NCBI RefSeq assembly: GCF_964355755.1
Contig: NC_092677.1
Coordinates: forward strand, 5,540,101 to 5,604,100
Direction of reading: 5' to 3'
Source: Antedon mediterranea
Lineage: Eukaryota; Animalia; Echinodermata
DNA: 64,000 nt
Shown here one piece after another: positions 7,303-51,000 of the stretch; position 1 is the stretch's first letter; every line of letters begins with the position of its first letter. The position numbers were made by a program, and so were the translations under genes. Below the pieces are notes generated by a model that worked only from the letters and a program-made list of their open reading frames with translations, was not told where the DNA came from and did no database searches.

Positions 7303-10300
7303 CTGTAAAAACAACAAAAGAAAATTCCTTTCATCTAATAACCTATATTTAACTGCTACGTCTGTATATAATTGTCAGCTTACAGATGTTGCTGCTTGTA
7401 AACGGAGACCAAGAGAAGTTTACAATCAATATGGCCACCAGATTAAAGTAACACATAGAATAATGGAGTACACGTTTTATCTGAGATTCTAATAATCTAT
7501 GAAACCGAAAGAAAGAAGAAAGTTGTATTATTAGTATTACAGCATGCAGTTTTGAAGTTAATTGGAAGTGAAACATGTTTGATACTTACAGTAGCATCCA
7601 ATGATCTCAAATCGCAAAGCTATGGCATTATGCCAAGAAACTGGGTGCAGGCGTACATATCGTGTAAGTGTAGCATTTGGAATTATATTGGTTACTGGAG
7701 TGTCAGCATCAGTATTGCCTTCAAACACCTGTGGTATGAAATATATATTTTTTTAAATACCTGTACTCTTATTCTTATATCAAACGGTACTGGAAGGACA
7801 TTTGAAAGAACAAATGAATATAAAAAGCTAAACAATGCAAATCATTGTTAGCAATTCAGTCGGAACAGACATCTCGAGTAATAGGAACGTAGGAAAAAAC
7901 CCGGCAGCATAACAAAACGTCAGATATGGCACAGTAGGAAAGCAGATATGGCAGATATGAAGATGGCAGATAAGAAGACGGCAGTTGTGGCACATACCTG
8001 TACGAAGACGACAGTTATTCCACATAGTACGGCAGATATTACACAAAGAAGACTGCAGATAATAAATAAGACAACATATTATATTGTACAGAATTAGACG
8101 ACATCTGCAGTTATGGCACATACGAAGACGGCATATATGGCACATAAGAACACTGCAGATAATAAGACAACATATATTGCACAGGATATGACGGTAGCCG
8201 CAGCTATGACACATACGCCAGATATGGCAGGTAAGAAGACGATAATAGGCAGCTTTCGAAACACACGACGCGGCGAATATCGAGACGCAACAGATCGTGA
8301 AATCCTACTGCCCATGCGGGAGCAAAGCCAATTTGTTCGGCCTGCTCATCGCGAGACGGGATTCGGCTGATTTGGCGTTGCCTGGAAGACGCGATTTGTT
8401 ATGGACCTTCTATGAGTATGTTTACAGTTTATATATCTATATAAGAGTACAGATACAATCTGTACTGATTTTATTTTATTTAGAAAGATATTTAAGAACT
8501 TCTGTGTGAAATTAGGCCTCGACCTAGGCCCTAGTAGGGAAATGCGGTTACATGACCGCATTTTCATAAATCGAAACAGCTTATAATTCGTGACGCGAAA
8601 GTCATGCAACGGTATTCATGGTTGACTGACTTCTGCGTCTCCCCCTCCCCGCGTCGCCACTTCGAAAGCTCACTAGTAATGCCACATAAGAAGACGTCAG
8701 ACATGGCGCTCATAAGAAGAAGGCAGATACATCACATAAGAAGACGTCCGATATGGCACATAAGACGAAAGTAATAGCACATAAGAATACGTCGGCACAG
8801 AAGAAAACGGCAGATAAGAAGACAGATATAGCACTTAAGAAGATGGTAAATACGTCACATAAAAAAAAAACAGCATACAGAAGACGACGTATATGGAACA
8901 GACGAAGACGTCAAGCACGATAGCATAACACATTATTGCCCAAACCTTTGAATTCCCTTCATTGTCTAAAATGGCGTCCCATTCGATTCCATTCATGCTG
9001 AACAAGATCTCAAACTCAGTAACCCATTTATTTCCGCCATGTTTTCCTTGGGTCACTACCCCAGTAATAACTTTAAGCCAGCCCAAATTGACTTGAATCC
9101 ATTGATTTGAGTTACTGTTTAGAGGCTGCCATCCTCCCTGTGCATTTTCTATTTGTTGTGAGTTCAGGCGCGCGCGATGCTGATTTGTCCCAAGTTGTTG
9201 AACAGAAGAAGCCTGTATGGAATAGTCTTGTATTTCGTAAGATTCCATTCCCATTGGTTCCTCACAAGTTATGACGTTAATAACTTGGTTTTCTGAAACT
9301 AAAACAGGCAAAAATAACTATAGCCAATATTTGTTATTGTTATGTACTTAGCAACAGGCGATATTTTACAAGCATATTTTTTAATCTTGTACAGATTAGG
9401 GTAAAGATTAAACATTGTCTTACTTTGTGTCGAGGTAGGTGGTAGACTTGTGGATTCTTCAGATGTAAGAGCTGCAATATGAAAACAGAGCAATGCAATA
9501 TCTATCGAAAATATTGAAATAACTGGCTAGTACCTAGTATCATGGAATTTAATCGCCTTAGAATCACAGTGCTTTAGGTTAAAGCCAACTTGGCCAGATA
9601 TTTGCGAGAATCGAACATTTCTTGGTCACAAAAGGTATATGAAAATATGAGTAAGCATGCGCATTAGCCAACACTTTCGATTCGGAGTTCTCACTAGGTT
9701 GTAATGCAGCTAAGGCAATAAATGTGTACATAATGTAAAATTTGCAAAATTGATAAACTTAAGAGGTGGATAATACTCTACCATTAGACGTCGTCGTGGT
9801 TTCTTCTGGAGGAAGTTGCGTAGTTTGAATTTGAGTTGATGACTCTTCAGTAGATGGGACTATGACTATGAAAGCAAATAAATAACATGCATTGCTTAAG
9901 AACGTTTATAGCGACTTTCTAACGACTTGGTTAGCTTAAGAATGTTGAACTACAATCTTAAAACGGAAAAACTCAGTCAATCCATCAGTCGATCGGTATT
10001 CACACAAAGTACAAATTACAGTTATTCGCTTTAGATAGTCTTACAATTTTGGCCCGTCTTTTTTCATTTGTTTAAAAGAACTACTACATAACCACAAATT
10101 GCCATTTTTGTCATTAAAAAATTACTATTAAATGAATTTAGTTCAGTCGTTTACAACAAGTTTTGTATCAGAACAATAATTTATAGTTGGTTATATTTTT
10201 CAAAACTGTTGAATGATAAAACTCTTACCACATGTCAAGTTATCAAACCCGATAACCATTTGTTCTGGGCATGTGCAGACCGCTTTTCCTGACTGAACAA

Positions 10301-13300
10301 TGCAAGTATGGCTACAGTAACCATTCAAAACGCTGCAGTCTTAAAGAAATAAAAAGCATCGACATATTATAATTAAAATAATAATAATTAATGTGATGTA
10401 CAATATTATTATAAGCAGAGCAGTAATATAGTGAAATTGAGTTTTTTTATTTATTTATCTACGATTGTAATTTTTGTTTATGCCATATAATAGTTACCTG
10501 CGTTTATTTTACAAATTGCTGGTAACATTTCTTGACTGCATGGTATGTCGTCAGAAAAAACTTCATAGTTGTCGCTGATTTTAAGTTTACGACAAAACTG
10601 CGTGTGATCTGATAAAAACGGTGTCGTATAGTAATGTATAAAGATAACGTATAGCGATGTAAGAAATTAATTTTAAAAACTAATTTTACTTATTGTTATC
10701 ACATTTTTGTGATCATTCAATTAAATTTCATTCTAATAACTAAATTGAAAACGGAGGAAGTATTGACGAAATTAAATAAGTATACATACCTGAATACTGT
10801 ATGGAAACAGTAAAGAAATCGGCTTTATGTTGAGGCGTAGCTGCACAAATAAATAGTAAATAGGCTAATTATTAATAGTTGAAACAAACTGCTATATTAT
10901 AAACATGTATTATTTGAGAGCTTAAGAGCATAACTTATACCAATGTTGTACGTAATGTTGGGAGGGTAAATCGATTGTTGGCACAGTTCCGTGGACACAG
11001 TCGTCAACTACTGTTGTTCCACCGTGTCATTTTGGGAGGGTACAAGATGCATCGATGGCACAGTTCCGTGGACACAGCCGTCAACTACTGTTGTTTCACC
11101 GTGTCATGTTGAGAGGGTAAAGAGATGCATCGATGCCACAGTTCTGTGGACACAACCGTCAACTAGTGTTGTTCCACCGTGTCATGTTGAGAGGGTAAAG
11201 AGATGCATCGATGCCACAGTTCTGTAGACACAACCGTCAACTACTGTTGTTCCACCGTGTCATGTTGAGAGGGTAAAGAGATGCATCGATGGCACAGTTC
11301 CGTGGACACAGCCGTCAACTACTGTTGTTCCACCGTTCCACACATTACACATTTATTGAGCTTAAGATTTAGCACATTAAAATAATATATCTTAACTGGA
11401 ATGAAAATAAAAATTACCTATTATTATAACTTCACACAAGGTAAGTATAGTGTTTTCTGTTGTTACAGACACATATTGGCCAGGTACATAAGGACATTGA
11501 ATGTCAATCTCTGGTTCATTTGTAACATGGTCAGATGTAACTGTCGAACATACTGTGTTCAAGTTATTGTCTTCGTTCATTCCGACACGAATAACTGCTC
11601 CAATCAACCGGTCTGAACAACAATCTGCAGGAAAAAATGTATTCAGAAGATGCTATTTCAAATCCGCCTAATTTTGCTGATGTTTTGTAAGATTACAAGG
11701 AGGATCAATATCTTCGACTGTGTAAGCCTTTGTGACGCTTGTGTATACATACTATTCTGCAGCTTCAAATACTTTTACCACTCGGAAAGCGCAGTGTCGT
11801 GGTGCGACGTGATATAATTTCTTAATAAATAGAAAATAACAGAATGTCCCTACTAAAAGTTGAACAAGTTTCAGTTATTTACCATCTCTGTTATATATTT
11901 TTACTGTTGTTATTACGTATTTGTCGTGCAAATCGATTTTCCACCAATTTTCACCAACTCCATCTGAATAAACAAAACAATTATGTACTATATGTAGTAA
12001 AGAAATGTTGTAAACCCATTATAAAAAAAGAGTGCTGACCACACTGAGTAAATTAACGGTAATTGGTTGACGTCGACTGAACGACTAAAGCCTTGTTCAC
12101 ACTGGACTTGAAAGTAAATTCAACCACCGTAGCTTTACCGAATGTCACCAGAAGATTTTACCATCGTTCGCACTTGCATATTTTTACGCAGTTAGTTGTC
12201 TTGGTTACTTTAGCCGGCGACTCGGTTAATTTTACCAATTGCGTCAAGTGCGACCGAGGCTTAAGTTTGAACTGGCCCATAATGTAAATTTTCATCTAAA
12301 AAGGTCGAAAATAAGATTAAAGGCATGTACCTGATGAGTACGTTTGTATTACCCTCTGTTATGTATACGTACCTGTAGCTGTACAACTTCCCTGGGTAAA
12401 CACGGTGTTGTGGTCACCATCTATAGCAAGATCAGGCACACCACCGAAGCTAACACTAGACTGTGACACTGTCTTTCCATTCAAATTTATCGTTTCACCT
12501 TCTGAAATTAATAATGTTATATTTGTATTTCGACTGGTATCTCCACGAGCTTCTCTACCTCTAATATGATTTTCTCGCACTGGTGGTCGAACTACTGTTT
12601 AACCGACCAGTGTTCGTAAATCCTGTTTTCCTGGAAGAATTTGAATTCGGGAGAGTAGTATATTTCAGGCTTTGTTTTATGGTATCGCCATGAAATGTTC
12701 TGTAGGCCTACTCTCATTAGGAGACGTGTTTAGGACCATCGAGTCGGTCCCGGAGTTGTTGTTGACATTGTCTATGTTTCTACATCACTTAAAGTAATAC
12801 TTATGCGTAATGATAGTCTAATCATACGATTGGAAATGTTTACAATATTTATTTTCAGAATTTTGATTTTTAAAAATCAATACATTAAATTTATAATAAT
12901 ACAAATACAAATCACTATACAGTGAAAAAAACCAATACAAATTCAGATACCGTCTTTCCAATTCTCAACAATGTCTGAGGTGCTGTATATAAAACATGGG
13001 AAAACGCCGCAATCCTCCCACGGACAGTATGAATAGTAGGGCTTAACGACAAACCAGCCTAGGTCGTCTTGACAATCTCCATACTGTTTGTTGATGAACC
13101 ACAGTCTTCCCATACCCCTGTACAGTACAAGTGGAATGAAAGGTCGTTTCAGTGTTCAGTGAACATCGCAAAAAAAATTAAATTTAAAAAAAAAAAAATT
13201 TAAGGCTGCTACACACTAGGACAATAGCAATAGACGATAAATTAATAGATAATCATATATTTTCTTACAAAAAAAAACAAAAGAAATTTATGAAAGTTTT

Positions 13301-16300
13301 TACTATAGAAAATGATAACCAATTATGTTGTCTTTTTTAAATCCAATCAATGACGTCATGATCAATATAGAACAATAAAACCGCCGTATCATCACAATAT
13401 TATTGCTCTTACTGATACTGAATGGACGTGAAAATATTATTTTCATCAGAGACAGAAACACGTTCTAGAATAAATATTTTCTATTTTATGTCTTAAATAA
13501 AAAATGCATGTCGAATTATTAGTTACATATCGTTTTCATCCTAGTATAAACAGGCCTTTTCTTAGTTTCTAATAGAGAAAAAATGATAGTAGATAGTTGT
13601 ATTGTAAACATGAGTAAACATTATTTATGAGTGCAAAGGCACAAATAACAACAGATAACATTATAGATGCTAACATTTTAGTATGTACTTACAAATGGCC
13701 GTCTGCACTAAAATAATTTGTTGAAGTAGTTTCTAAATCCGTCCACGGAGATGTTAATAAGTTTTGTTTCTGAAAAAAACTTTTGTAGTCCGACTCAACA
13801 CCATTAAATACAAGTGCAGTCTCTCCAAGCTCATCATACAACGCCACTTTTACCTAGTATGGTTTTAAACAAACAAATTGACAATGACTGATCTAAAATA
13901 TTTCCTTTATTGTTCGACAGATATGTAAGGTTGATTATAAGATCCTCAGCTTGTTATGAATAGACAAGTAAGACCCGATTCTGCAGCTGTCACTAAATAC
14001 ATCCTAACTGACTTTCGCAGGTCATTAAGATACAAATCTAGGTGTAGCCTAGTACACTCACTATTCTTACTCTCACTATACGTATGTATTACCTTCTCTA
14101 TACCAATGTCATTCCAGTTTTCCAGCAAAGGGTTTACAAAACCTCGCCTATGTGCTAGGTCTAGGCTCATTGCCTCGTATTCGCCATCTCTATACCCTTC
14201 ACCTGATTCGTATAACTCAGTAAAATTTGAAGTCACTTCAGAAACTGCCTTGAAAATGAGTTCCCATTCTGTGTAATATAAAATATACCAATTTACAGAC
14301 TTATTAAACTATAGTTATAGACTTAATAAACTAGTTACAGACTTATTAAACTATTTATATACTTATTAACTAATTTATTCTGGCTGTTTTATTTAGCTTT
14401 TTGCTTAATATTATCTCTATTGTGATCCATCCACTGATACCCATAGCATTGCCATTGTTTTAGTAATTTGCATTTGGATTTATACTTAATAACTTAGTTC
14501 TATACCTGTTCAAAATATTTATATACTTATTAAACAAGTTATATATACGCTTATTAAGTTCTAAACACATTTTAGTTATTTTAAACTACCATAAATTTGG
14601 TATTTAAATGTTTTACCCGAGGAGTGGCTGCCCCATATAGCAGGCATGTTCTGTGTAAAGTATACGTCTAAGTGCCTAAATAAGTCGACCTCGTTGCCTT
14701 CCGGTAGAGTACCGCCTAGCGATTGACATTCCGCAGATGTCACATTCCATGGAGCACTAAGTCCCATATTACCATATATGATTTCTTCAGACTTCATCCA
14801 TTGTGAATCTGTACAAGAAAATCAATTCAATGGAGTAGATGTTTAATATCCACATTAATAATGTGTTTCCTTATTTTTTGTGTTGTAGGCCTACACATTC
14901 AATGTTACGTTGCCTATCGAGAGTTTGCTCCTTCAGATGACATGGGAAACCATTAGCAATGCAGGAACTAGCAAATTCCTAGGCCTAATTGATCTGATCT
15001 TTATATAAGTACTTTAGACGTTTTTTTTTTTCATTTTTTATATATGCGTTACAATGGCTGTTCACACGTATTTATCTGAGTTAAAACAATCGATTGGTTT
15101 AACTTGTTACGTTTTCAAACGTGTGTGAAGTAATGTTAGTTCGAATGTATATCTGAAATCAGTCGGAGGTGGTTAGGCCCACATCATCAGATGTTTTACC
15201 GATTTAACGAGAGGGATGTAAGAGAGTTATAACCAATTACAGGACCACCTTACTTATGTCGGTTTTTACTCTGATTCGGATCAGCTTAAATCCGTTCTAT
15301 GAAGATTAGTTCAGGGCATGTAAACATTTTTTTTTAAAGATAAAAATACTTTTTACAAGCAAACTTAGTTACTACTTACTGTCACACCCAAGAACCTCAA
15401 AACGCAAGGATATGCCGAAGTCATTTCCAGTGAATTGATGAAATTTCACGTATCGTGTTAGAGCCAATTTTGGAAATATGTTAGTTACTGCAGTATCACT
15501 GTCACTGTTACCCACAAACACCTGTTAATGCAAATATGTTTTTTTTAATAAATGCGTGTAATTGTTGATAAATTTTGGAATTCGTAGTTTATCCTATGGT
15601 ACTGGTGGAATCTAGATACAGTATCGGTAATGAAGTTTGTAATATCTTTTTAATGGAAAATTGACATTTAGTGATTCTATGTTCAATGAACAATTTGAGG
15701 TGTTTATGTGAGATAATACAAAAAGCAAACTCTTTTCGCGTCCACAATCGAGTTCCGCCTTTTTAGCCATAGCCCAGTCTTAAATTAAAAATAGAAACTT
15801 CTGGCTTGCGTTGATAAATAACAACAAGTTGGTGTTTTATAAAACAATTGAATGCTTTGTAAAATTTGTAAAATGTGCTGTTCCTTTATACCTCTAGACA
15901 TTTATTATCTGATTATTAATTAACACATATAGTTGTCCACACCTTTGGATTTCCGTGAATGTCTAAAATGGCTTCCCAATCATTGCCATTCATACTCAAC
16001 AAAACCTCGAAGGTAGTGACCCATCTGTTTCCATTTTGTCTCCCTTTCGTAATTACTCCAGTAACCGGTTTAATCCAGTTATCCAATTGTACTTGGATCC
16101 ATGGATTTGTATCACTGTTTTGTGGTCGCCATCCGCTTTCATTCATTCGAGCATACTGCTCGATGGCTCCTGTTCGGGAACTTGATGCCTGTATAAACTC
16201 GTCCGGTATTTTCCTTGATTCCATACCAAACGGTTCATCGCATAAATCTAAAACAAAATCATTCTGACAATAACTATTTGCCAATTTATGTTTATATTTT

Positions 16301-22300: not shown

Positions 22301-24920
22301 GGGATATTTGATTGTTTAGTGGGAAATGTTAATTGTTAAAGTGTTATGACAGATTTTTTTAAATATCGTATTTTCATATATTGAGTATTGGTAAAATAAA
22401 AGACGAATGATTTAAATTATTAATATGCACTTATATATTTAAACTTTACAATAACACAAATATGTAAGCATAATACTTATGAATAAATTTAATTACAAGC
22501 CACACGTTTTGCATTTTTAATATCTTAAAGTTAAATTTACTTTTTAGAAAAAGAGTTATACTCTGTTTTTTTTTATTGTGTTATTAATGCATGTGTCGGG
22601 GGCGTTTATTCGAGGAAATAAATAAACGCCCCGCCACATGCATTAATAGTAATAACACTTTTTTTTACAATAAGTAAATCAATTTTATTATTTTTATGAC
22701 TTATTTCTAAGTAATATTGTGCCTCAATAATCCACAGTAAAAATAAAATACCGTAGACCATGGAGAAAAACACAATTATGGAAAGTTTGTTACATGTTGT
22801 GTAACTTCTACAATTTTAGAATTTCAATGGTTATACCTTTTTCGTTTCAAAGAGAGTGGCAGTTTGGATTAGTAAGTTTCTATGCATATCGGCATATTAG
22901 CGGTCGATATACTGTACGCTCAGCAGACATTGAAAAAGAAATGATAAATGTCTGCAAACCCGCGCCAATTGCACCACAATGTGACATTTACGTTACCCAC
23001 GACTTTCGTTTCAAAGAGAGTGGCAGTTTGGGTTAGTAACATTACACATAAATAGTAATTCTTAAATAATGAACTTTTACAATGTCCTCTGATGGTGTCT
23101 GTCAGTACAGTAATAACAAATACAACATATGTTGATGAAACTGCCGCCTTTTTAGTCGCGTGGACGCGACTCAATAGTTCACTATGTCGGTCGGTCTGTC
23201 TGTCGATCCGGTATCACTATGCGTTTTATCGCTTTTCTGTACTTTTTGAACTGTTTTTATGTTTTTTCTGAGAGCACGCGACTTATGGCTGTTGGCCTTG
23301 TTACTTCTATTTCTACTACGGTAACTATACTTTTGATCCATATTTTGTTCACTAGGAAGAGAGAGTTTTTCGTGTTTACCGTCTAAGAATTATACGTTAT
23401 AAGTTTCTTTTTACTTCGCTAAAATGAACTAATCGATCTCATCATGTTAACTATGCATGTAACTATAATCAATAACAGTATAATATATATTTTTTAAACA
23501 TAGTTCATCCGTTTTTCCATATTATGTTTTTTTATAATGTTTATATGAGGGCCTCTTGATTGTCAGCATATGCTGTTTCGAGTCACCCTCACTAAATAAG
23601 GTTTAATAAAAAATTAAAATAAAATAAATAATTAATTAAAAAAGAGTATAATAAACGCCACCAACACCCCCCAACGCCCCGGGACGTTTATTCGAACACA
23701 AAACGGTATACATTTCAACTTCATAACATCGACAAAATTACCCATGTTTGGTACGAATAAATTAGTATATATTAATTATATATAATTATATTGAAATAAA
23801 AAAAGTGGGAACAATCTTACCACAAGTAACCCCCACATCCTCTCCATGATCGCAGTTATTATTCCCCCATCCTGGTGTAGAGCAGTGCCACAGGTGGCTC
23901 TCATGACCAACACAGTTGACATCATCTAACCAAATAGGACCACTCCCAGCGCCAAAATGTGCAGAACTCCACACATGCGAAGCTCCAACGTAACCCATTG
24001 AGCGACACGCAACGTTCGCGTCGTTCATGTCAAAATAATCATCGCATACAGTTCCCCATTCCCATCTATCTTCACAATAAAGCCAGCAACCAGATGTGTA
24101 CCACCATATCTCCAGCCGTCCTTCATAATAGTAATTGCCACCCGACATCGTTATATTCTCTATAACACAATCAAAATAACCATCAATGAAGAACTTTACA
24201 AGAATAATAAGCTCTGTCTACACCATCAAACTTTATGTGACAAAAATGCGATGTACCAAAATGATATGCTTAAATTATGGTAGTGATATGACATCATCAT
24301 GTCCATATATGGGCACATGACATTTTTTTGTGACATAAAGTTTGATAGTGTGGACAGAGCTTAATACCAAAGCAAACAAGAACTCAATTTCTCTATAGAT
24401 ATCCGATTACCATTTCATTCAATTTCAGTACAGGTTCACTAATGTTCTAATTCACTATTATATTCACATTATGACACCAAAAATGTTATATAATGTGTGC
24501 AAGAATAAAACATGCGAGGAGGCATTGAACGAGAACCAAGAGTCCAACTAGTCAAGTATAATATAATAGTCAGTATTAAGGATCCAATACGATACGAGGA
24601 AAGTTTTTGCAATCTCCAATAAAACATTTAAAAATTGAAGTTTAACAAAAATATGAAAATATATAAACATTGTACGTAAAAAAATATAGGGAAAAATATA
24701 TCTCTTCAACATAATTAATATAAAAATACATGTTATTTACAAATACGGGACATCAAAAAAGAAAACGACAAAATAAAGTAGTTAGTTCAGGGCACCCCGG
24801 CCCATATTGAATAACAAAGACAATTAATTCAAATACAATATAAATAATATAAAACTTACGTGAGTTAGTAGACCCGATACAGATGAGAACTAAAATACAA
24901 AAACCTAATATATCAGTCAT
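29..24920 (-). CDS. Gene A (3' end beyond left edge): secreted mosaic lectin-like protein, SP-SRCR-EGF-F5/8C-Thr linker-[F5/8C-nested CTLD/unknown/F-type lectin module-EGF-linker]-[F5/8C-nested module...], >1600 aa
   Basis: Exons read by hand with GT-AG boundaries and consistent phases: 24860-24920, 23821-24159, 22102-22218, 17653-17978, 17093-17231, 16430-16525, 15943-16247, 15380-15521, 14617-14808, 14093-14268, 13693-13853, 12951-13117, 12373-12501, 11883-11963, 11418-11624, 10790-10840, 10498-10608, 10229-10339, 9782-9865, 9424-9471, 8946-9298, 7590-7728, 7108-7302, 6544-6719, 5983-6152, 5109-5278, 4259-4399, 1527-1598, 1030-1236, 420-470, 29-136 (4825 nt in total). Confidence 0.85.
2094..3195. 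mobile_element. Non-autonomous Tc1/mariner-superfamily (pogo/Tc2-like) element
   Basis: TIRs CCGTATATTTCGGTGTACAAGTCGCAC / GTGCGTCTTATACACCGAAATATACGG with TA on both flanks; no ORF. Confidence 0.85.
3664..3735 (+). mobile_element. tRNA-derived fragment (SINE head or tRNA pseudogene)
   Basis: A-box-like TAGTCGAGTGG and B-box GGTTCGATTCC at tRNA spacing; no intact cloverleaf. Confidence 0.5.
6250..6510. repeat. Degenerate intronic minisatellite (aatcggaaaaacggcgaaattgacgaagcgccg-like)
   Basis: Several imperfect copies visible directly. Confidence 0.8.
7590..9298 (-). CDS. Gene A F5/8 type C domain 3; exons 8946-9298 and 7590-7728
   Basis: CEEPMGMES...ARLN...GGWQP...QWIQVNLG...TGVVTQG / VFEGNTD...[22 protein letters not shown]. 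Confidence 0.93.
7920..8930. repeat. Degenerate minisatellite (atggcacataagaagacggcag-like), interrupted by a MITE
   Basis: Repeated motif; orthologous array in gene B at ~38065-38610. Source of spurious Cys/Leu-rich ORFs. Confidence 0.8.
8247..8674. mobile_element. MITE inserted in the minisatellite of gene A, absent from gene B
   Basis: Imperfect TIRs AG..AGCTTTCGAA....CGACGCGG / CCGCGTCG....TTCGAAAGCT..CT. Confidence 0.7.
10498..14808 (-). CDS. Gene A nested module copy 1: CTLD N-half (14617-14808), unknown domain (14093-14268, 13693-13853, 12951-13117), F-type lectin (12373-12501, 11883-11963, 11418-11624), unknown-domain last strand (10790-10840), CTLD C-half (10498-10608)
   Basis: W..C.SLGGTL...AIWGS; WELIFKA...VKVALY...FNG...SPWTDL...NYFS...[17 protein letters not shown]; VSQSS...AIDG...SCTAT...WWKIDL...IYNRDDCCSDR...LTLCEV; ADFFTVSI; FCRKL...DDIPC...PAICK. 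Confidence 0.82.
10955..11336. repeat. 78-bp tandem repeat, about 5 copies
   Basis: gagagggtaa recurs at 11111, 11189 and 11267; units are nearly identical. Confidence 0.92.
15380..16247 (-). CDS. Gene A F5/8 type C domain 2; exons 15943-16247 and 15380-15521
   Basis: CDEPFGMES...PWIQVQL...VTGVITKGR...WVTTFEV / [14 protein letters not shown]...SLRFEVLGC. Confidence 0.92.
17093..17978 (-). CDS. Gene A F5/8 type C (discoidin) domain 1; exons 17653-17978 and 17093-17231
   Basis: [10 protein letters not shown]...RGRLN...GAWC...NQWIQVDFG...SGVITQGR / IFNGNSD...YVRINPLTW...CLRFEILGC. Confidence 0.93.
18153..18198 (-). ncRNA. Penelope-type minimal hammerhead ribozyme motif, copy 1 (stem I degenerate)
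   Basis: Minus strand reads act-CTGAGGA-c-GATCAA-agtata-TTGATC-GAAAC-GTC-gag. Confidence 0.6.
18588..18878 (+). mobile_element. Probable solo LTR
   Basis: TGTAA...TTACA termini, internal AATAAA near 18815, flanks catcat / cattat as a near-perfect TSD; 291 bp. Confidence 0.6.
22102..22218 (-). CDS. Gene A calcium-binding-type EGF exon
   Basis: [39 protein letters not shown]; 117-nt phase 1-1 exon. Confidence 0.9.
23821..24159 (-). CDS. Gene A SRCR (scavenger receptor cysteine-rich) domain exon
   Basis: EGRLEI...[22 protein letters not shown]...[25 protein letters not shown]...[16 protein letters not shown]; 339-nt phase 1-1 exon. Confidence 0.95.
24210..24361. mobile_element. ~150-bp palindromic MITE family (PIF/Harbinger-like); other copies near 16563-16683, 26030-26154, 39858-39920, 40390-40460
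   Basis: AGCTCTGTCTACACCATCAAACTTTATGTGACAAAAA ... TTTTTGTGACATAAAGTTTGATAGTGTGGACAGAGCT. Confidence 0.8.
24860..24920 (-). CDS. Gene A signal-peptide exon ([20 protein letters not shown])
   Basis: ATG at 24920, hydrophobic core, phase-1 donor C|gtaagt that matches the SRCR exon acceptor. Confidence 0.75.
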
Positions 24921-28499: not shown

Positions 28500-28920
28500 A
28501 AACATTATGATGATACATATCGGGAGATTTTGTTGGTTAATCCGAAAAATTGCATTTTTATCGAGAAACTCCCGCCATTATCAGGTGAGTTAAGAGGTCT
28601 GCCGTCCCCAAAAGATCCTGCTAACCAAACTAAATTAACCAGGAGAGTACAACTATAAGCAGATGAACCATTAATGTACTTGCAATTTTACAACATAACG
28701 GATGGTTAATTCTGAAAAGAAACAATTTCGGTATTTCTGCTTCTACTGTCGTCACACCACCTGGAGATCAATATGTGAAGTACACGTACCTTAACTTTGT
28801 TTACACGGATGATGGCAGGGACTCTACTCAACCGGAATGGCTTTCACTCTCAAATAGAGAAATATAATGTCACCTTACCAGGAGGTAAGTTGTCAACTGA
28901 ATCATGTAAATAGTGCTCGT
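28500..28920. repeat. Dispersed repeat fragment, also at ~48510-48740 next to a hammerhead motif (possible Penelope-like relic)
   Basis: Shared gtcgtcacaccacc...atcaatatgtgaa...cggatgatg.cagggactctactcaaccggaatgg...ccaggaggtaagtt. Confidence 0.65.
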
Positions 28921-30759: not shown

Positions 30760-31268
30760 CGCACGTAATTCCATCAGGCTGAAGTAACAATTCCCCCGGG
30801 CATCTACAGACTGGTTCTCCAGATTGCATTGCGCAATCATGACTGCAAAGGCCAACAGCAAGGTTACACTCTACAGATTAGAAAGAGAGCCATATAATGG
30901 TATTCGTTTGTAAAAACGGGCATCTTCACCTAGGCCTAGTATCAGATCAGGAAAGGTCTACCACTCATAGCTCCTATATGGTCATATCACTATCATATTT
31001 GGGCTCATCACACTTGTTTTTCAAACTATTTGATAGTGCATGAAGTAAAGAATAGAATCTCTACTCCATGGATAGTGTAGAAAATAATATTTTAATTATG
31101 AATTATATCAGACATAAAAGTAAGCTTGGTGAGTTAAAGTATCCAAACAAACTTTACCACATGTCAAGTTATCGTGTCCGATTTTCATTGGTTCTGGGCA
31201 TGTGCAGACCGCTTCTCCGGACAGAGCAACGCAGCCATGGCTACAGTAACCATTCATAATGCTGCAGT
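30760..31268 (-). CDS. Gene B two EGF-like exons (31158-31268, 30760-30870)
   Basis: CSIMNGYCSHGCVALSGEAVCTCPEPMKIGHDNLTC and CNLAVGLCSHDCAMQSGEPVCRCPGELLLQPDGITC; 111 nt each, phase 1-1. Confidence 0.88.
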
Positions 31269-39900: not shown

Positions 39901-42900
39901 TTGATAGTGTAAACAGAACTTAACACTGCGTGCAGCATTTAACAGTACCCACCAATCACCGCTGAAAGTATTTCGCGGCAATGACGATTTACCGTACACA
40001 CACAAATTGCGCATTGTTTGTGATACATAATTATAGAATCTAGTGTCTGACGCCGATATAAAAAAAAAAACCAAACCAAACTCATAGGCATGCGCACAAT
40101 AAATAAACTGACACCATACTTCATTGCAATTCAAAAGCTCCTTAATATTGTACTTATGACTTACCATCGCATCCAAGAATTTCAAATCTGAGACATATGT
40201 GACTTCGCCAAGTAAGTGGATTTATACGAACGTATTGGGCATTTACGGCCGACGGTAGCATATTCGTAACTTCAGTGTTTCGATCTGAATTGCCATTGAA
40301 AATCTTTAAGAAAACGTAATTCATTTAGATAAAAGCAAAACTAATTTAGACTATATAAGTTCGAAAAAATATCGTCAAAATATATAAGTGGTATGACAAC
40401 ATCGTGTCCATAATTATGTGGGCACACAACATTTTTTTTGTCACACAAAGTTTGATAGTGTTTTGTCATATTTTGTTGATATTTATTTTTAGTCTCACTA
40501 TGTCGGTCGGTTGGTTGGTTGGTCGGTCTGTCTGTCAGCTGGTCGGTCGGTAAACACTAACTCAAATTTGTGCACCCGTCTGCAGCCATGTTTATGGCCT
40601 TGTTGCTTGATAATAAAGGTGAATGCATACATGAACCATGGGTTAACTATTTGAAAGTTGAATTACGGTAATGATGTTTGTCAGGTACCAATCAGAAGAA
40701 TACGAGTTGTTTGGCAATTTGTTTATCACTCTGTGGATAATAATTATTTCTTTACCTAACCTGTAGTAGAAGTGTACTAGTAGTGGTGACGTAGTTCAGT
40801 GACAATGTGCAGGATTGCCACTTTCTGCTACTTTGTCAATTCCCGTTAAAATTATATAAAGTAAATAACTTACAATCACTGCATCATTGTCATCAGTTAT
40901 ATCTACAAAGTTGGTGCCGTCAACGCTATAAAGAACTCCGTACGTCTTCACATATTTATTTCTATCACTTCTACCTTGTGTGATGACGCCGCTTATTTGT
41001 TTCAGAACACCAAAGTCAACCTGTATCCATTGGTTTGTGCTTGCGACACCTGAACACCAGGCACCATCGCCTTCACTGTCCGCTTGTGTATTTAATCTTC
41101 CACGTTCAGTTCTGTATTCACTGGCGTATTCACCAGATGATGATAAGTCTTGTGAAGGTATTGTGCCATCTTCAACTCCAAGTTTACTTGTGCAAGAACC
41201 TAAAAAAGAAACATGATTATATATCAGTTATATAAGCCTATGTCAACTAATATTACCTTTGTAGCACTTTAGATGTTTCTCATTCGGAGGATATTCGTGA
41301 AAATAACTAAAACAATATAGTATTATTAGATGTTCTTGATCCTGGAGCATGGATTACGTTTAAGTTTTATGCTTACGTTTTTAAAAACCTTGTTTTTTAT
41401 GTTTTCCTGTTTTTTTATGTTTTCCTGTTTTTTACGTGTTTCTTAAAAATTTCTTAACAAATTGAACCAGTAGCTAATAATCAACAGGTTACATAATAAA
41501 GAAGATTGGATGCTTTAGTTGGATATGAGCCGAGCTTTCGATGACTGGGCCGATTCTGTATTTCACTGACTAAGTTTAGTATTTTGATCTAGAACCAATG
41601 TGCCTAGGATTTATAGTTTCTAATAATAATACAAAAATTAACACAATAATCAAGCACTGTTACTGGTGTCTCAGCGCTAAAAGACCAAAATAGTTATTGA
41701 AATAAGTGAGGTCTTCGAAGTTGCTTAAGGGATTGACTGGTGTTTAGCAAAAACGCATTTGGATTAGATGAAAGGATTTTGGAAAAGCCCGTAAAGAGCA
41801 TCTATTTCAGAGCGTCGTTCACCATTTTGTGTTGGGATAAAATTAGATAATATCATTTAGACTTTGTAATGATGCTGCGTCATTTTTTAGTCGCGTGCAA
41901 CGTGACTTTACAGCTCACTATGTCGGTCGGTTGGTCGGTAAACACTAAACACGCGACTGCAGCCATGTACATGGCCTTGTTTCAATGGTTTCAATGTGTA
42001 CCTGCACAATTTGCACCTGGTTCTCCTACGTCACATAACTCCCATCTAAGATTGCTATCAGTAGTATAACACCATGCGGTTGGCTCTCCATCTGGATTTC
42101 GACATGAATTGTGAGCGCCTAAGCCTGTTCCGGGGTAGTTCTGCTCGGTTATCGAGTGCGAGTGTGGATACGCGACGTCCCATGCTTGACATGTTCTGCC
42201 GTTTATTGTTGTGCTTACAGAACCTCTGTAATCCGAAGCATCTTAGTAGAGCAGTTAAGGCCATAAAAATAGCCAAGTTGTGCACTTTATTACCAAAGCA
42301 TGAAACTTGCCACAAAGTTTCTTTGATGTATATAGATTCAAAATATCGGGGGGGTGCCAAGTGTCCAACGTCCGGTATGGCGGCCATCTTGATTTCAAAA
42401 TGGCCACCATAAAAACAAAAAGTGTTCATATCTTGGCAACTATAAACAGTAGAGACTTGATTCTGGTGTTAAATTGTTCACAAACCACATATTTCTATTT
42501 GCCCTAATGAAAAGTTTCGTCAAAAAATGACCGGAAATGACGTTTCTTCCAGTTCGACCTTTGACCTCTTATCTGTATTTCTCAGTAACTACTGATCATT
42601 TTCAATCGATTTTGGTGTCATTTTGTTCAGAATAGAGACATTTATATTTGTAGTAATGAAACATTTTCACATAAAATGACTGGAAATACAATTTATAACC
42701 TTTGACATATTTAATTATGTGAACATACTGTATGTGGTTTACATTGGTATAAATGCACCTAATTTGTTTTACCGAAATAAATGACACTTAATGCAAAAAT
42801 GACCAGGAATTTATTATTCTGAATTTTTGACTTTTGATGTGATAGGATAGGCGTAAAGTATGACAGATCACTGAGAAACAGCAATCACTGAGCTCATGCC

Positions 42901-45900
42901 GACTTGTTTGCTATAAACTGTGATGTGTCAATCGTTATATAAAAGTGTTGGTCCTCTCTCCTTCATCTTTTCTTTTTTTTTGTAATGTATTATACCATAT
43001 GGACAATTGTCTGAAATAAAAGTTGAATTGAATTGTTAGATGCCATTTGGAAATATTTTTGATGTAAAGTAGCATTCTTTCGTTGGCCTCTTTGATGTTG
43101 CATATGAGACAAGTTCGGAAAGTTCTCATTTTCATGAGTTAAGAGAACACCGTCTTTCAAAGTACTTACTACAGTAGACCTACTTTCATTAGTCAGAAAC
43201 TCAGATAATTCTTGGTCATTTTCGTTGCATCTAAACAAATGTACTCAATTTTTATGGTAATAGCCTTTGCTGTAAACCATCTGAATCCTTTTCCTCGATT
43301 TTCTCTAGTCATTGATTTTTTAGCAAAATCCGAACCAAATCAATTCGTAAAAGGCATCTCAATATAATTATTCAAGTAATCCTCAAATTAGTGACATGGA
43401 CCTACAATATACTGTTCTGTACAAGACCTTTTTAGGCATCCACCTGTGGACTTTCACTTTGAAGGTCTTCATGGTCTCCTAATCATACAAGAAACAATGT
43501 CTGATTTAATCAATCAAAGTAGTGGGTCCAGACCATCCACAGTCAAAGAAGGGGTATAAGACCATCCACAGACAAAGAAGGGGGTGTAAGACCATCCACA
43601 CACAAAGAAGGGGGTATAAGACCATCCACAGACAAAGAAAGGGGAAGGCCATCTACAGAAAAAGAAGGGGGTGTAGGACCATCCACAGACAAAGAAGGGG
43701 GTGTAAGACCATCCACAGACAAAGAAGGGGGTATAGGACCACTTACAGACAAAGAAGGGGGTATAAGACCATCCACAGAAAAAGAAGGGGGGGGGGGTGT
43801 AAGACCATCCACAGACAAAGAAGGTGGTGTAAGACCATCCACACACAAAGAAGGGGGTATAAGACCATCCACAGACAAAGAAAGGGGTGTAAGGCCATCT
43901 ACAGACAAAGAAGGGGGTGTAGGACCATCCACAGACAAAGAAGGGGGTGTAAGACCATCCACAGACAAAGAAGGGGGTGTAAGACCATCCACAGACAAAG
44001 AAGGGGGCGTAGGACCCTCCACAGACAAAGAAGGGGGTGTAAGACCATTCACTGACAAAGAAGGGGGTATAGAACCACTTACAGACAAAGAAGGGGGTAT
44101 AAGACCATCCACAGACAAAGAAGGTGGTGTAGGACCATCCACAGACAAAGAAGGGGGTTTAGGACCATCCACAGACAAACAAGGGGATGTAGGACCATCC
44201 ACAGACAAAGAAGGGGGTATAAGACCATCCACAGACAAAGAAGGGGTATAAGACCATCGACAGAGAAAGAAGGGGGTGTAACTGTAAGACCATCCACAGA
44301 CAAAGAAGGGGTGCAAGACCATCCACACACAAAGAAAAAGGTGTAAGACCATCCACACACAAAAAAAGGGTGTAATACCATCAACAGGCAAAGAAGGGGG
44401 TATAATACCGTCCACAGATAAAGAAAGGGGTGTAAGACCATCCACAGACAAAGAAGGGGGTGTAGGACCGTCCACAGACAAAGAAGGGGGTGTAAGACCA
44501 TCCACTGACAAAGAAAGGGTATAGGACCACTTACAGACAAAGAAGGGGGTTTAAGACCATCCACAGACAATTAGAAGGGGGTGTAGGACCATCCACAGAC
44601 AAAGAAGGAAGTGTAGGACCATCCACAGACAAAGAAGGGGTGGAAGACCATCTACATACAAAGAAAGGGGTGTAAGACCATCCACACACAAAGAAAGGGG
44701 TGTAATACCATCAACACGCACAGAAGGGGGTGTAAGACCATCCACAGACAAAGAAGGGGGTATAAGACCATCCACAGACAAAGAATGGGGTATAAGACCA
44801 TCCACAGACAAAGAATGGGGTATAAGACCATCTACAGACAAAGAAGAAGGAGTAGGACCATATTAACCGAGGAAGCATACAAAAAGAAGATACAATCAAA
44901 ATACCACTTGGAAAACAATAAATTGTAGAATAACTGAGGCTTGATTGTTGAAATATAAAGGGTTCTTTGTAAGGTCATTAATAATATATTGATATAAACA
45001 CGATCATCATACTTTTCATTTGACATTCAAATACAGTCTATCTCGAAAAGAAGCTCATACTATCACCTTTTCGAGGTTTTACGGTATTCCATAACATGTA
45101 TGTTATTTCCTCTGTCAAACTATTAAAACTTTTAGCGAATCAGAAGGTGCCAACATCATTGAACTAATGGTACCACCAAGCACAATGTTTACCAATTTTA
45201 TGTACTATATACAATTTAAGTCCATTAATCATTTAATATAATTACGCCTATCAGGTCAAAGTTCAAAGACCAACAAAAACCACATACAGTATATTCACCT
45301 AATTAAAAATCAATAAATAAATGTCAAACGTCATAAATTGTATTTCCGATCATTTTATGTGAAAATGTTTCATTACTACAAATATAAATGTATTTATTCT
45401 GAACAAAATGACACCAAAATCGATTGAAAATGACCAGTAGTTACAGAGATATACAAATACGAGGTCAAAGGTCAAACTGAAAGAAACGTCATTTCCGGTC
45501 ATTTTTGGACGAAAATTTTTATTAGAGCAAATAGAAATATATAGTTTGTGAACAATTTGAGACCATAATTAAGTCTCTAATGTGTATAGTTGCCAAGATA
45601 TGAACATTTTTTGTTTTTATGGTGGCCATTTTGAATTCAAGATGGCCGCCATACCGGACGTTGGACGCTTGGCACCTCCCGATATTTTGAATCTAAATAC
45701 ATTAAAGAAACTTTGTGCCAAGTTTCATGCTTTGGTAATAAAATGCACAGCTCATGTCATTAACTGCTCTACTATCTCCCGTGTAGTAGCATTCTGAATG
45801 AGCAGATAGGTGAAAGATATATAACTTATATTAATCTATTTTTACCTATTCTTTCTTTTCATTGATAACGTTGAGATTCCAATGGAATTCATCAAGTTAA

Positions 45901-48049: not shown

Positions 48050-51000
48050 ATGTATGCTCGCGCATTGGCTTTGCTATCTATCCCGTGTATTTTCGGTAAG
48101 TCGCCGGCAAATGTATTATATGTGTACAATATATGTGTAAAATAGTGTGTAAGGAATTAACAGTAGGCCTACGTAAACTTACATATTATCCACTATTTTG
48201 TAACTACGGTAGAAGGCCTGAATAGGCCTAATGTCAATTTTCACCTTTTCTTTCATTGATGTTTTGATGTTTACTTGATACATATGTACATTAGTAGGCC
48301 TACTTGTTCTCGTGGGAGTATTCGGTACACCACTATATAGTTTTGAAAAAAACTGTTGAGTTTCTCGACGTTTCGATCAATATTCTTTGATCGTCCTCAG
48401 GAGTGAGAATATGTTGGTACATATTACAACACAAATTCTGTATCTTAAGTCAGTGTATTAACATCTGATAGCACATTGCACAAAAGTCTCAATTCAACAA
48501 AAAGACAAAACTCCATGAAAAGATCCTAAGCTAACCAAGTAGCGCATGATAAATTAATTAAGAAACAAGTTGGGTATTTTCAGCATCTACGGTCGTCACA
48601 CCACCTTTCAATCAATATGTGAAATACAACCTTCAACTTATTTGTACGGATGATGACAGGGACTCTACTCAACCGGAATGGATTTCACCCTCAAATACAA
48701 AAATAGATACATTTAAGTCACCAGGAGGTAAGTTATGAAAGGGATCACGTAAGTGTGTTAACAAGCAACAACAACAGGAGGCTGAGCTCAGGAGATCAAA
48801 GGGTATATCTGTGGCTGCGACACGATCAATTCCACGCCCCTTAACAGACACCACTCGCCGTGCACATAGTAGTACTGTTGGTATTTGTCGCAGCCAGACA
48901 TAAAATCAAAGGACTGTTACGAGTTCCTATATTGTCAAGGCGAGCTCAGTGTCCTTGGAACGTCGAAGGTACATAACTGTACCCGATCGCATGTGATGCA
49001 ATTTATTATTATGATTAAATAATAATAAGAAAAAAAAACACAGGATTTAACAGGATAATAATAATAATGATATAATACGCACAGTCCTTGTGCAAAACAT
49101 TATATTATTATTGTTCCGGGGTACAAACATTTTAATACACCATAGTTAGGGCATATTTCAATTCAAGATGAAAAGTGTGGTTTATTATGATATTGTTTAT
49201 AATGTTTATCATATTTATTTTGTAGCTAATTGTGATAATACAGCAGCCTGTAATGCCGAATTTGGTCATTACTGTGAAAATGCATTTGCTGATTGTGTTG
49301 ATGGACATTGTATCTGCCAGCAGTTTGGAATTGACCCATGTTCTTGTTTAGGTATTGTATTATTATTATTACTATCAATTCAATTCAATTCAAATAAACA
49401 TTTATTTCTTTCATTCATATTTGAGTAAAAAACATTATAATTTCTGATATTTTATATATAAATATTTTTTTTAGAGATATAATACATTAAATCATAATGT
49501 ATAAAAAAAAAAAAAAAAAACTATCGTCGATTTAAATACACGTAGCAGGAAGGTGTAATGTTTTATGTGATTATTTTCAATTGTAATAAACTATTTCTAG
49601 AGGGGTGTATTAGTTAGTAGAAGTTATTTCAGTAAAGACATACCGGGAATAATCTCCTCTTCAGTAACAACAGTAATGACGAAGAAATAAATTTGCCATT
49701 TCACAAATGTCATAGGCCCTAATGCAGATACTTATGTTTTTTATTCTACATGAGTTATACTTAAAAGCAAAAGTACTGTTAAAAAAATATCTCATTATAT
49801 TCGAGGTAATCCAACAACAGGATGCTCAGCTCCGGAGATCAAAGGTGTTATATGTGGCTGCGACACGATCAGTTAAGTTCCACGCCTCATAGCAGACACC
49901 GCGCGCCGCGAAGAATATGTACATTACAGTACTGGTTGGTATTTGTCGCAGCCAGACAACTGATCAAATGACTGTTACGAGTTCCTATCTTGGCACGGCG
50001 AGCTCAGTATCGTGTTGTTAGACTGTCTTGCTATATTGAACGTGTTTTCAAAGTGAATTATCGAATGGGTGTAAGAGGCTTCGATTGGTGAACTTTTCTA
50101 TGATATATGTTTTTTTAATGTGTCTAATTTTGTATTTCAGTTTCACTTAATGATTGCTCTATGGTAAGAGGAAACGATGGAACAATTTCTGTCGCTACTT
50201 CGGTTAATACTGAGCCTATCCAGTACACAAGCTGTAGATCTGAGACTTCAGCAGTTACTGAGGTCTACATCATAGCAATGGTGTATGGAATTGCATCTCC
50301 AAGCTTCACGAACGTTAATGTCAACATATTAAACCGAAACAACCGTACAGATAAAGAGATTGTAATCGTTTTGGTTTCGGATCGACTCGTGTTTTGGAGA
50401 GTAAATATTAACAATAATGAGACGATACATAGGTTGGTGCATGTATGTACACATTCAACTATTTTTAGAAACATGATTTCTAAAACCCCTCCTGAAATAA
50501 AATAAAAACAATCTATACACATTACTGAGACTTTAGAACAAGCAGAAACTGCAATCAAAATTGTATTGTACTTGGGAACAAAACAATAATGAACACCAAA
50601 CAAATGTTTATTATAAAAAAGTAATTGACATTCACAGTTGAATTAATAAATATAAGTACCACGTATTCATTCAAAAAAGTGAAAAACTTCTCCTTAAAAT
50701 TTAAACATTCTTACATGCAAATGAGTACCACATGGAGAATGTGTCATCATTTTATGTTCCTATGTTAAGATTAGTTAGATAACTTTTTAATAACATTCAA
50801 CCAATTGATTTATTTGCAATATCCAGCTTTCAAGATATCAAGATGAAAATAATTTTGAAATCCACGGTCAGGTTACCGCTATTCACAAGCCAAAGGGTGC
50901 ACCATACGGGATCGGAGACGATGCAATATATGGTGGGAAAACAGTCGATATGCTGCTTTACCTAAAAGAAAACTACGGTCACGTGTCCTCCTTCACAGGA

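Follow-up and report, generated by a model that had tools for sequence, protein, structure and literature searches.

A crinoid lectin module with an F-type lectin inside an unnamed, probably fibrinogen-like domain, itself probably set between the halves of a C-type lectin domain

We analysed a 64,000-nt stretch of the genome of the crinoid Antedon mediterranea (contig NC_092677.1; the whole stretch is called the window here), AT-rich animal DNA with a GC content of 27-40% per 2 kb, with a focus on a nine-exon lectin module that is present in it three times. All copies lie on the minus strand, namely copy A (37433-31427), copy B (14808-10498) and copy C (7302-29). Each comprises, in coding order, an exon for the N-terminal half of a putative C-type lectin domain (N-half), three exons for an unnamed domain (UD), three exons for an F-type lectin domain, a 51-nt exon (exon 8) and an exon for that C-type domain's C-terminal half (C-half). 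An earlier note, made from the letters alone, had listed this exon series at the same three places, and it is borne out: AG/GT ends are found in 27/27 exons (three copies of nine), and the joined frames are stop-free over 422 (A), 424 (B) and 429 (C) amino acids. The boundaries N-half/UD, UD/F-type, F-type/exon 8 and exon 8/C-half are all of phase 1 in 3/3 copies, as had been noted for every nesting boundary; the two outer ends of the module are likewise of phase 1 in 3/3 copies, and the two introns within UD are of phase 0 and phase 2. The segment between the C-type halves measures 324 (B), 329 (C) and 322 (A) amino acids rather than the ~340 first estimated. The peptide that had been quoted for exon 8 is that of copy C (the ISI form); the sequence in copy B is [11 protein letters not shown].

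One RefSeq protein of Antedon mediterranea, XP_071958874.1 (P0001), contains copies B and C, with exact identity over residues 527-950 (copy B) and 1197-1625 (copy C). Its domain order is SRCR, EGF, discoidin, a threonine-rich segment, discoidin, module B, EGF, a threonine-rich segment, discoidin, module C and two EGF domains. The protein is probably secreted, judging by a signal-peptide-like exon picked out by eye; its C-terminus lies beyond the window. Copy A, 81% identical to copy C, falls outside this protein and sits in an upstream duplicated exon run consisting of a kringle, two F5/8 domains, the module and two EGF domains.

Most joints of the exon chain are supported by spliced contigs, all from one run (X1) of one study; the RNA nature of X1 is a guess, yet its contigs skip introns. 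A 960-nt contig holds 16247-15939 and 14808-14617 at a distance of 138 nt, the length of the intervening exon (138/138), and a further 143 nt of it fit the first UD exon of copy B. A 447-nt contig equals 207+81+129+30 nt, that is, the three F-type exons plus an overlap into UD (447/447). Exon 1 of copy B is exactly covered by a spliced contig (record 5), and exon 7 is backed by another (record 2). The joints between the first and second UD exons and from the third F-type exon through exon 8 to the C-half are absent from the joint table, which is crowded by repeats, and are backed indirectly by depth sums, which weakens the case for the full chain at these points. In the second and third UD exons the variants have a common depth of 17.7, and in the C-half and EGF one of 13.6; where the last F-type exon ends, the depth of 32.7 exceeds 14.8+13.6, the excess being an intron-level remainder. 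Between them, the contigs and XP_071958874.1 link the exons in the order that the earlier note had claimed.

The whole module recurs, as a single copy, in Anneissia japonica XP_033126065.1 (P0009), where it occupies residues 151-572 between discoidin and EGF domains; this protein is 52% identical to XP_071958874.1 (alignment A6). Among 151 proteins, split halves were found in these two only, both crinoid. Word-based homolog searches returned 1/290 candidates (the second UD exon, leading to XP_071958874.1), 0/111 and 0/6, and missed even the Anneissia protein, so that they do not bound the distribution of the module. Between the three window copies the ratio of nonsynonymous to synonymous substitution rates (dN/dS), a rough value from simple counting over few codons, is below 0.6 for every part: the halves have 0.22-0.28 (the C-half alone 0.08-0.22), UD has 0.18-0.39, exon 8 has 0.13-0.32, and the F-type domain, with the highest values, has 0.49-0.56. 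Such a conserved base with a faster-evolving tip would fit multivalent glycan recognition. That the halves are decayed sequence is ruled out by this purifying selection.

The inner of the two insertions is the better supported. A UD profile built from 98 uninterrupted domains ends where the F-type domain starts. When each downstream 17-residue window was appended to UD and scored against the UD profile, exon 8 was the top window of 177, 177, 171 and 175 in 4/4 modules (the window copies and Anneissia); its gain of 15.7/19.4/18.5/9.8 bits compares with 8.2/7.7/6.8/4.5 for the best other window and with 1.5-3.5 bits for the native continuation of UD. The UD matches that extend to the end of the domain number 183; 120 of them run straight into a final strand of the form AD-x-x-x-[IV]-F-V, 53 stop within 60 residues, mostly as short, single-exon-like fragments whose reading runs on into an intron, and the other 10 have a different continuation. 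By the window test exon 8 is thus the homologous last strand of UD, which would make the module a double insertion, as had been proposed from the way invertebrate homologs end. In the AlphaFold2 model of the Anneissia protein the F-type jelly-roll spans ~381-525 in 50/50 structural matches, to the exclusion of the strand at 526-537. The last strand (521-540) has a higher predicted local distance difference test score (pLDDT), 70 and 85, and local trial alignments placed the last strand of homologs on exon 8 in 6/9 cases and failed to do so in 3/9; the row set was picked after these nine trials, so this is not independent evidence. That the F-type domain was inserted ahead of the last strand of UD, with exon 8 supplying that strand, can be held with high confidence. 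That exon 8 might instead belong to the F-type barrel was also considered and is ruled out by the window test together with the limits of the jelly-roll in the model.

The same site has been used elsewhere. In the predicted model XP_072017377.1 of the brittle star Amphiura filiformis, a 156-amino-acid discoidin domain is inserted at the pre-terminal site of UD; in XP_072017518.1, also a predicted model, three discoidin domains follow that site and the model has no final strand; and in the predicted model XP_072017681.1 UD is uninterrupted. The brittle-star insertion is apparently independent of that in crinoids. Among six metagenome loci, two bear an intron here: L061 has a phase-1 intron just ahead of the strand, whereas its near-identical counterparts L058 and L059 continue without interruption at that point; in L060, too, a phase-1 donor occupies the pre-strand site.

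UD had been called uncharacterised, and indeed no Pfam family covers it; to this we can add that it is widespread and probably fibrinogen/intelectin-like, though distantly so. With a profile made from the third UD exon, 349 representatives were found at E <= 0.001, of which the best 150 were examined; UD is present in molluscs, echinoderms, a hemichordate and amphioxus. An uninterrupted homolog from the sea star Asterias gives a confident model (pLDDT 87.8), for which VIA places intelectin-1 at Z 5.8 (root-mean-square deviation (rmsd) 4.3, 160 aligned). Moreover, a fibrinogen-type [YF]CDM...GGW segment precedes UD in 14/94 domains with an intact start, and Pfam Fibrinogen_C matches that segment in P0007, P0049, P0082, P0083 and P0106. 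It is because of these fold matches and this segment that we read UD as probably fibrinogen/intelectin-like. Several results tell against too close a relation: the UD profile finds no PDB sequence; the top ten Foldseek rows for the Asterias model are all fibrinogen-like, the best at E=0.017 and none reaching 0.001; and the VIA scores all stay below 8, with TLDc tied at Z 5.2 and Angptl3 at Z 5.0. Fibrinogen-related domains and intelectin are the best fold matches of UD, but UD is very distant from them (5-14% identity, Z <= 5.8). The crinoid UD is without the fibrinogen-type N-terminal segment (A-subdomain) ahead of the GGW strand, and the C-type N-half stands in that place. The five proteins named above are intronless and bacterial-looking, with UD behind the fibrinogen-type segment and often repeated. 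An intact UD also occurs in the ectodomain of an adhesion G-protein-coupled receptor of Antedon mediterranea (models P0156/P0110).

The F-type fold of the inserted domain is shown on the Anneissia protein. Residues 382-525 of the Anneissia protein match FBP32 (E=4.6e-31 for the whole chain) and the eel lectin 1k12 (E=1.2e-17); 1k12 is also the best Foldseek match of the modelled F-type region (E=6.7e-6), and VIA scores that region at Z 10.4 (rmsd 2.6, 111 aligned). Pfam PF22633 matches residues 1457-1557 of XP_071958874.1, and the F-type exons of the window match it below the cut-off. The fucose triad H...RxDx4(R/K) is complete in copies A and C and in Anneissia, with H-to-R spacings of 25, 26 and 26; a spacing of 26 is known from other work. 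For the F-type fucose motif the excerpt of PMC5712786 available to us gives an H-to-R spacing of 24, and its cation motif h2DGx takes the form AIDGD or AIDGN in 4/4 modules. Copies C and A are predicted to bind fucosylated glycans through this tip, in keeping with the fucose-binding role first proposed; this role is doubtful for copy B, where the histidine of the motif is replaced by alanine, RxDx4R is present and fucose binding is predicted to be altered or lost. F-type domains are combined with other extracellular modules, a C-type domain among them, in Drosophila CG9095 (furrowed) and sea urchin SpCRL as well, and in CG9095 the C-type domain is without sugar-binding residues and the F-type motif carries substitutions; in the same excerpt, however, these proteins appear as domain combinations and tandem arrays, not as an F-type domain nested in a domain within a split C-type domain (PMC5712786).

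The outer insertion rests on the reading of the two flanking exons as parts of one C-type lectin domain. In 4/4 modules the N-half has one cysteine and the C-half three, with four in UD and four or six in the F-type domain, and the 1+3 cysteines of the halves align with C1 and C2-C4 of a C-type profile in 4/4 modules. The cysteine spacings of the joined halves are 42/18/9, 42/17/9 and 42/17/9 in Antedon and 39/15/9 in Anneissia; the C3-C4 spacing of 9 is found in 2/45 reference rows, and a spacing of 8 in 34/45. The profile was made from 46 domains, 43 of them bacterial, which were reached via a bacterial genome scan whose matches lay mostly on the query's fibrinogen-type segment. On it the N-halves map to columns 13-61 and the C-halves to columns 92-119, collinearly and cysteine on cysteine, and the 29 columns of the long loop, EPN included, are absent between them; this agrees with the earlier statement that the C-half gives the other three cysteines and that the missing segment is the long loop. 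After deletion of the loop the profile scores the joined halves at 7.0/14.6/15.8/8.4 bits (B/C/A/Anneissia). Shuffled sequences attained these scores in 1/0/0/1 cases out of 500, and substitute C-halves in 9/2/0 cases out of 802 and in 0/274.

A natural counterpart exists in Anneissia XP_033122895.1 (P0006), in which a contiguous loop-less C-type domain (~1140-1219) lies directly N-terminal to a UD. When excised, this domain scores 23.2 bits with Pfam Lectin_C (cut-off 22.6); in the whole protein it is missed (E=0.044). Its cysteine spacing is 39/15/8, and the joined-halves profile scores it at 12.7 bits (0/1000 shuffles). It thus shares with the module both domain types, a near-identical cysteine spacing and the animal class, but the arrangement is a contiguous tandem, not nested and without an F-type insert. 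Cysteine parity and this counterpart are two arguments for one C-type domain that are independent of the loop-deleted profile.

A number of results weigh against this assignment. The full-length profile scores the joined halves at 3.3-8.0 bits, matched by 65, 180 and 26 of 802 and by 10/274 controls, so that significance is confined to the loop-deleted profile; the cut in that profile was chosen to suit the hypothesis, and its rows are mostly bacterial; the hhalign probability is 42% with the loop-deleted profile and 4.6% without loop deletion; and the joined profile missed the 3 canonical C-type domains among 151 proteins. Against PDB, the C-half alone found no C-type lectin and 11 unrelated matches, and for the N-half the best match, afifavidin (E=0.12), is unrelated, with PLA2R (E=0.21) behind it. 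In the AlphaFold2 model of the whole Anneissia protein (mean pLDDT 51.6) the halves do not form a C-type fold (pLDDT ~37-56); because a known discoidin domain failed there too (26-43), the model is uninformative on the halves. Likewise, fold searches of this low-confidence model were filled by jelly-roll domains, with no C-type or fibrinogen rows, and are uninformative for those parts. Pfam Lectin_C finds the N-half of copy C (E=0.055; 1/3 N-halves) and 0/3 C-halves, and is not listed for XP_071958874.1 at E <= 1; that annotation by hidden Markov models would miss the C-type part was rightly foreseen, Pfam giving Lectin_C in neither full protein. When half-profiles were run across whole proteins, no domain scored higher than 2.2 bits. 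Atlas hits all stay below 0.9 and are leads only; in those at 0.89 and 0.88, 11% of the members carry Lectin_C. The C-type assignment of the halves is therefore statistically modest, and taking both sides together we consider it quite probable that the two halves co-fold into one C-type lectin domain.

EPN/QPD is absent in 4/4 modules, and the WND position reads FSDD or FLDD, so the C-type part would most likely be a non-binding pedestal. A canonical Ca2+-dependent C-type lectin is ruled out by these residues and by the 29 absent loop columns. According to the available part of PMC6468738, the Ca2+/sugar site of the fold lies in the beta2-beta3 loop and strand beta4, the disulfides join C1-C4 and C2-C3, and the termini lie together; the beta2-beta3 loop has ~30 residues, but it can also be short, give way to a helix, be absent, or be lengthened for swapping. 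The putative crinoid domain shares this variable site with compact C-type folds (link domain, intimin, invasin) and snaclecs, and shares with the non-lectin forms the absence of EPN/QPD and, as predicted, the C1-C4 and C2-C3 pairs; it differs in that the site carries two whole domains (322-329 amino acids) (PMC6468738).

The account that we prefer, and think likely on the whole, is that the F-type domain lies in UD and that this unit lies between the two halves of one loop-less C-type domain, which would serve as a disulfide-clamped, non-sugar-binding pedestal for a predicted glycan-binding tip. The chain would enter via the C-type N-half and leave at the beta2-beta3 turn; UD would fold except for its last strand, and the F-type jelly-roll would then form; on the way back exon 8 would complete UD, and the C-half would close the C-type fold, with C1-C4 spanning the insert and C2-C3 local. 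With entry and exit of the C-type fold at one pole, the insert would be a side branch of the SRCR-EGF-discoidin-threonine-rich chain, not an in-line bead. A likely role would be multivalent glycan recognition in innate immunity or matrix adhesion.

Alternatively, the inner insertion alone may be real, the flanking exons being remnants of two different C-type domains left by a deletion in a tandem array and acting as linkers or small units without co-folding. The weak profile scores of each half and the lack of a co-folded model would suit this, and the tandem of C-type domain and UD in XP_033122895.1 is a possible source of such remnants. However, the halves are complementary, with neither overlap nor missing core; their odd cysteine counts (1 and 3) are kept in 4/4 modules, which hold no other free partner; purifying selection on them is as strong as on UD; and both were duplicated as one unit three times. 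We regard this alternative as unlikely.

The module could also be a splicing cassette, with the nested form as one isoform among transcripts that skip the whole insert, leaving a compact C-type domain, or the F-type exons, leaving an intact UD. Because all boundaries are of phase 1, both skips keep the frame, and the products would resemble natural contiguous domains. Against this, the contigs of the single spliced run pass unbranched from N-half to UD and from UD to the F-type exons, although contigs drop rare forms, and both RefSeq models include all exons; we hold it to be very unlikely. If anything a little less probable is that the halves form the C-type fold between neighbouring modules or chains, giving oligomers or filaments, in the manner of the domain-swapped dimers of snake C-type lectin-related proteins, in place of a pedestal within one module. 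The beta2-beta3 loop is a known swapping element of snaclecs in the available part of PMC6468738, and XP_071958874.1 holds two modules; but the Anneissia model has only one, and both inserted domains bring the chain back to its start, which would favour closure in cis. Finally, a gene-model artefact, with unrelated exons strung together by prediction, has hardly any probability left: the RefSeq models are predictions and two joints are not listed directly, but the three copies, the second species, the exact-length spliced contigs and the purifying selection largely refute it.

As to the history of the doubly nested module, its phase-1 borders are those of class 1-1 exon shuffling, in which phase-1-bounded modules spread in extracellular metazoan proteins (PMC8001218, in part). 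Here, however, the landing introns lie inside domains, twice, whereas that part of the paper treats modules joined at domain boundaries. Most simply, the module would have arisen by class 1-1 exon shuffling into intradomain phase-1 introns, possibly starting from a tandem of a loop-less C-type domain and UD as in XP_033122895.1. Because of that tandem domain, the loop was perhaps lost before the insertion, and the C-type host may already have been loop-less by then. Hence, of the earlier wording that the loop was replaced by the insert, the absence of the loop stands, and replacement is weakened by the contiguous loop-less crinoid domain with nearly the same cysteine spacing. A literature search over titles and abstract openings found no doubly nested architecture described. 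Domain insertion and exon shuffling are known processes, and the component parts, too, belong to known kinds; what seems to be new is their double nesting with a C-type domain as host.

The features of the window are collected in Table 1. At the head of the upstream run that holds copy A, a kringle exon (41994-42242, minus strand) takes the place of the SRCR and EGF of the downstream gene; a signal-peptide exon for this run was not found. The last EGF exon of the run (30760-30870, minus strand) ends in a phase-1 donor and could splice on; the matching EGF exon of the RefSeq protein reads into similar intron-like sequence, and the C-terminus of that protein may be incomplete. An 80% identical pair (28717-28909 and 48560-48752) reads as a plus-strand exon with a donor site at its end. 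The copy at 28.7 kb is frame-broken; it may be a stray duplicate from a plus-strand immunoglobulin-domain gene (48.5-58.3 kb) and may mark an edge of the tandem duplication. In the intron between the F-type exons and the 51-nt exon of copy B, a 77-78 bp unit is repeated in tandem about five times (10952-11336). A minisatellite of ~1.3 kb (43515-44861) has open frames on both strands and is probably non-coding; an 870-bp direct duplication (52147-53874; 91%) and an inverted 510-bp pair (42244-42748/45269-45774; 87%) are probably repeat elements.

Table 1. Exons of the three module copies and of adjoining domains, in window positions
Feature	Position	Strand	Remark
Copy B exon 1	14617..14808	-	C-type N-half, one Cys (C1), to WIGL-equivalent strand
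Copy B exon 2	14093..14268	-	UD first exon
Copy B exon 3	13693..13853	-	UD second exon
Copy B exon 4	12951..13117	-	UD third exon, ends ahead of last strand
Copy B exon 5	12373..12501	-	F-type first exon; cation motif kept, motif His to Ala
Copy B exon 6	11883..11963	-	F-type second exon
Copy B exon 7	11418..11624	-	F-type third exon, completes R-x-D-CC-x-x-R
Copy B exon 8	10790..10840	-	51 nt, last beta-strand of UD
Copy B exon 9	10498..10608	-	C-type C-half (C2, C3, C4)
EGF-like exon	10229..10339	-	After copy B
F5/8 type C (discoidin)	16247-15943, 15521-15380 (15380..16247)	-	Two exons ahead of copy B
Copy C exons 1-5	7302-7108, 6719-6544, 6152-5983, 5278-5109, 4399-4259	-	
Copy C exons 6-9	1598-1527, 1236-1030, 470-420, 136-29	-	
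Copy A exons 1-5	37433-37239, 37045-36870, 36234-36068, 35742-35573, 34658-34524	-	
Copy A exons 6-9	33350-33279, 32820-32626, 32298-32248, 31534-31427	-	
SRCR exon	23822..24160	-	Near N-terminus of protein with copies B and C
Signal-peptide-like exon	24861..24920	-	Short, hydrophobic; by eye, limits approximate

In broader terms, we lean somewhat towards a view in which a loop-less C-type domain offers, at its beta2-beta3 turn, a natural socket that holds a two-domain branch of ~320 residues, making this the first doubly nested lectin module. This view would also expose overlooked loop-less and split C-type domains, and a widespread fibrinogen-like UD whose pre-terminal phase-1 intron took up different jelly-rolls on separate occasions, an F-type domain in crinoids and a discoidin domain in a brittle star. 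The module, known from two crinoid species, lets shuffling into intradomain introns be followed exon by exon, and at its inner site a second echinoderm class has an apparently independent insertion. Pfam-based counts of lectin repertoires overlook C-type domains that are split or lack the loop, and UD, with its 349 representatives, awaits a family model. If the proposed nesting is true, the Ca2+/sugar-binding site of the C-type fold tolerates two folded domains and would constitute a natural display scaffold.

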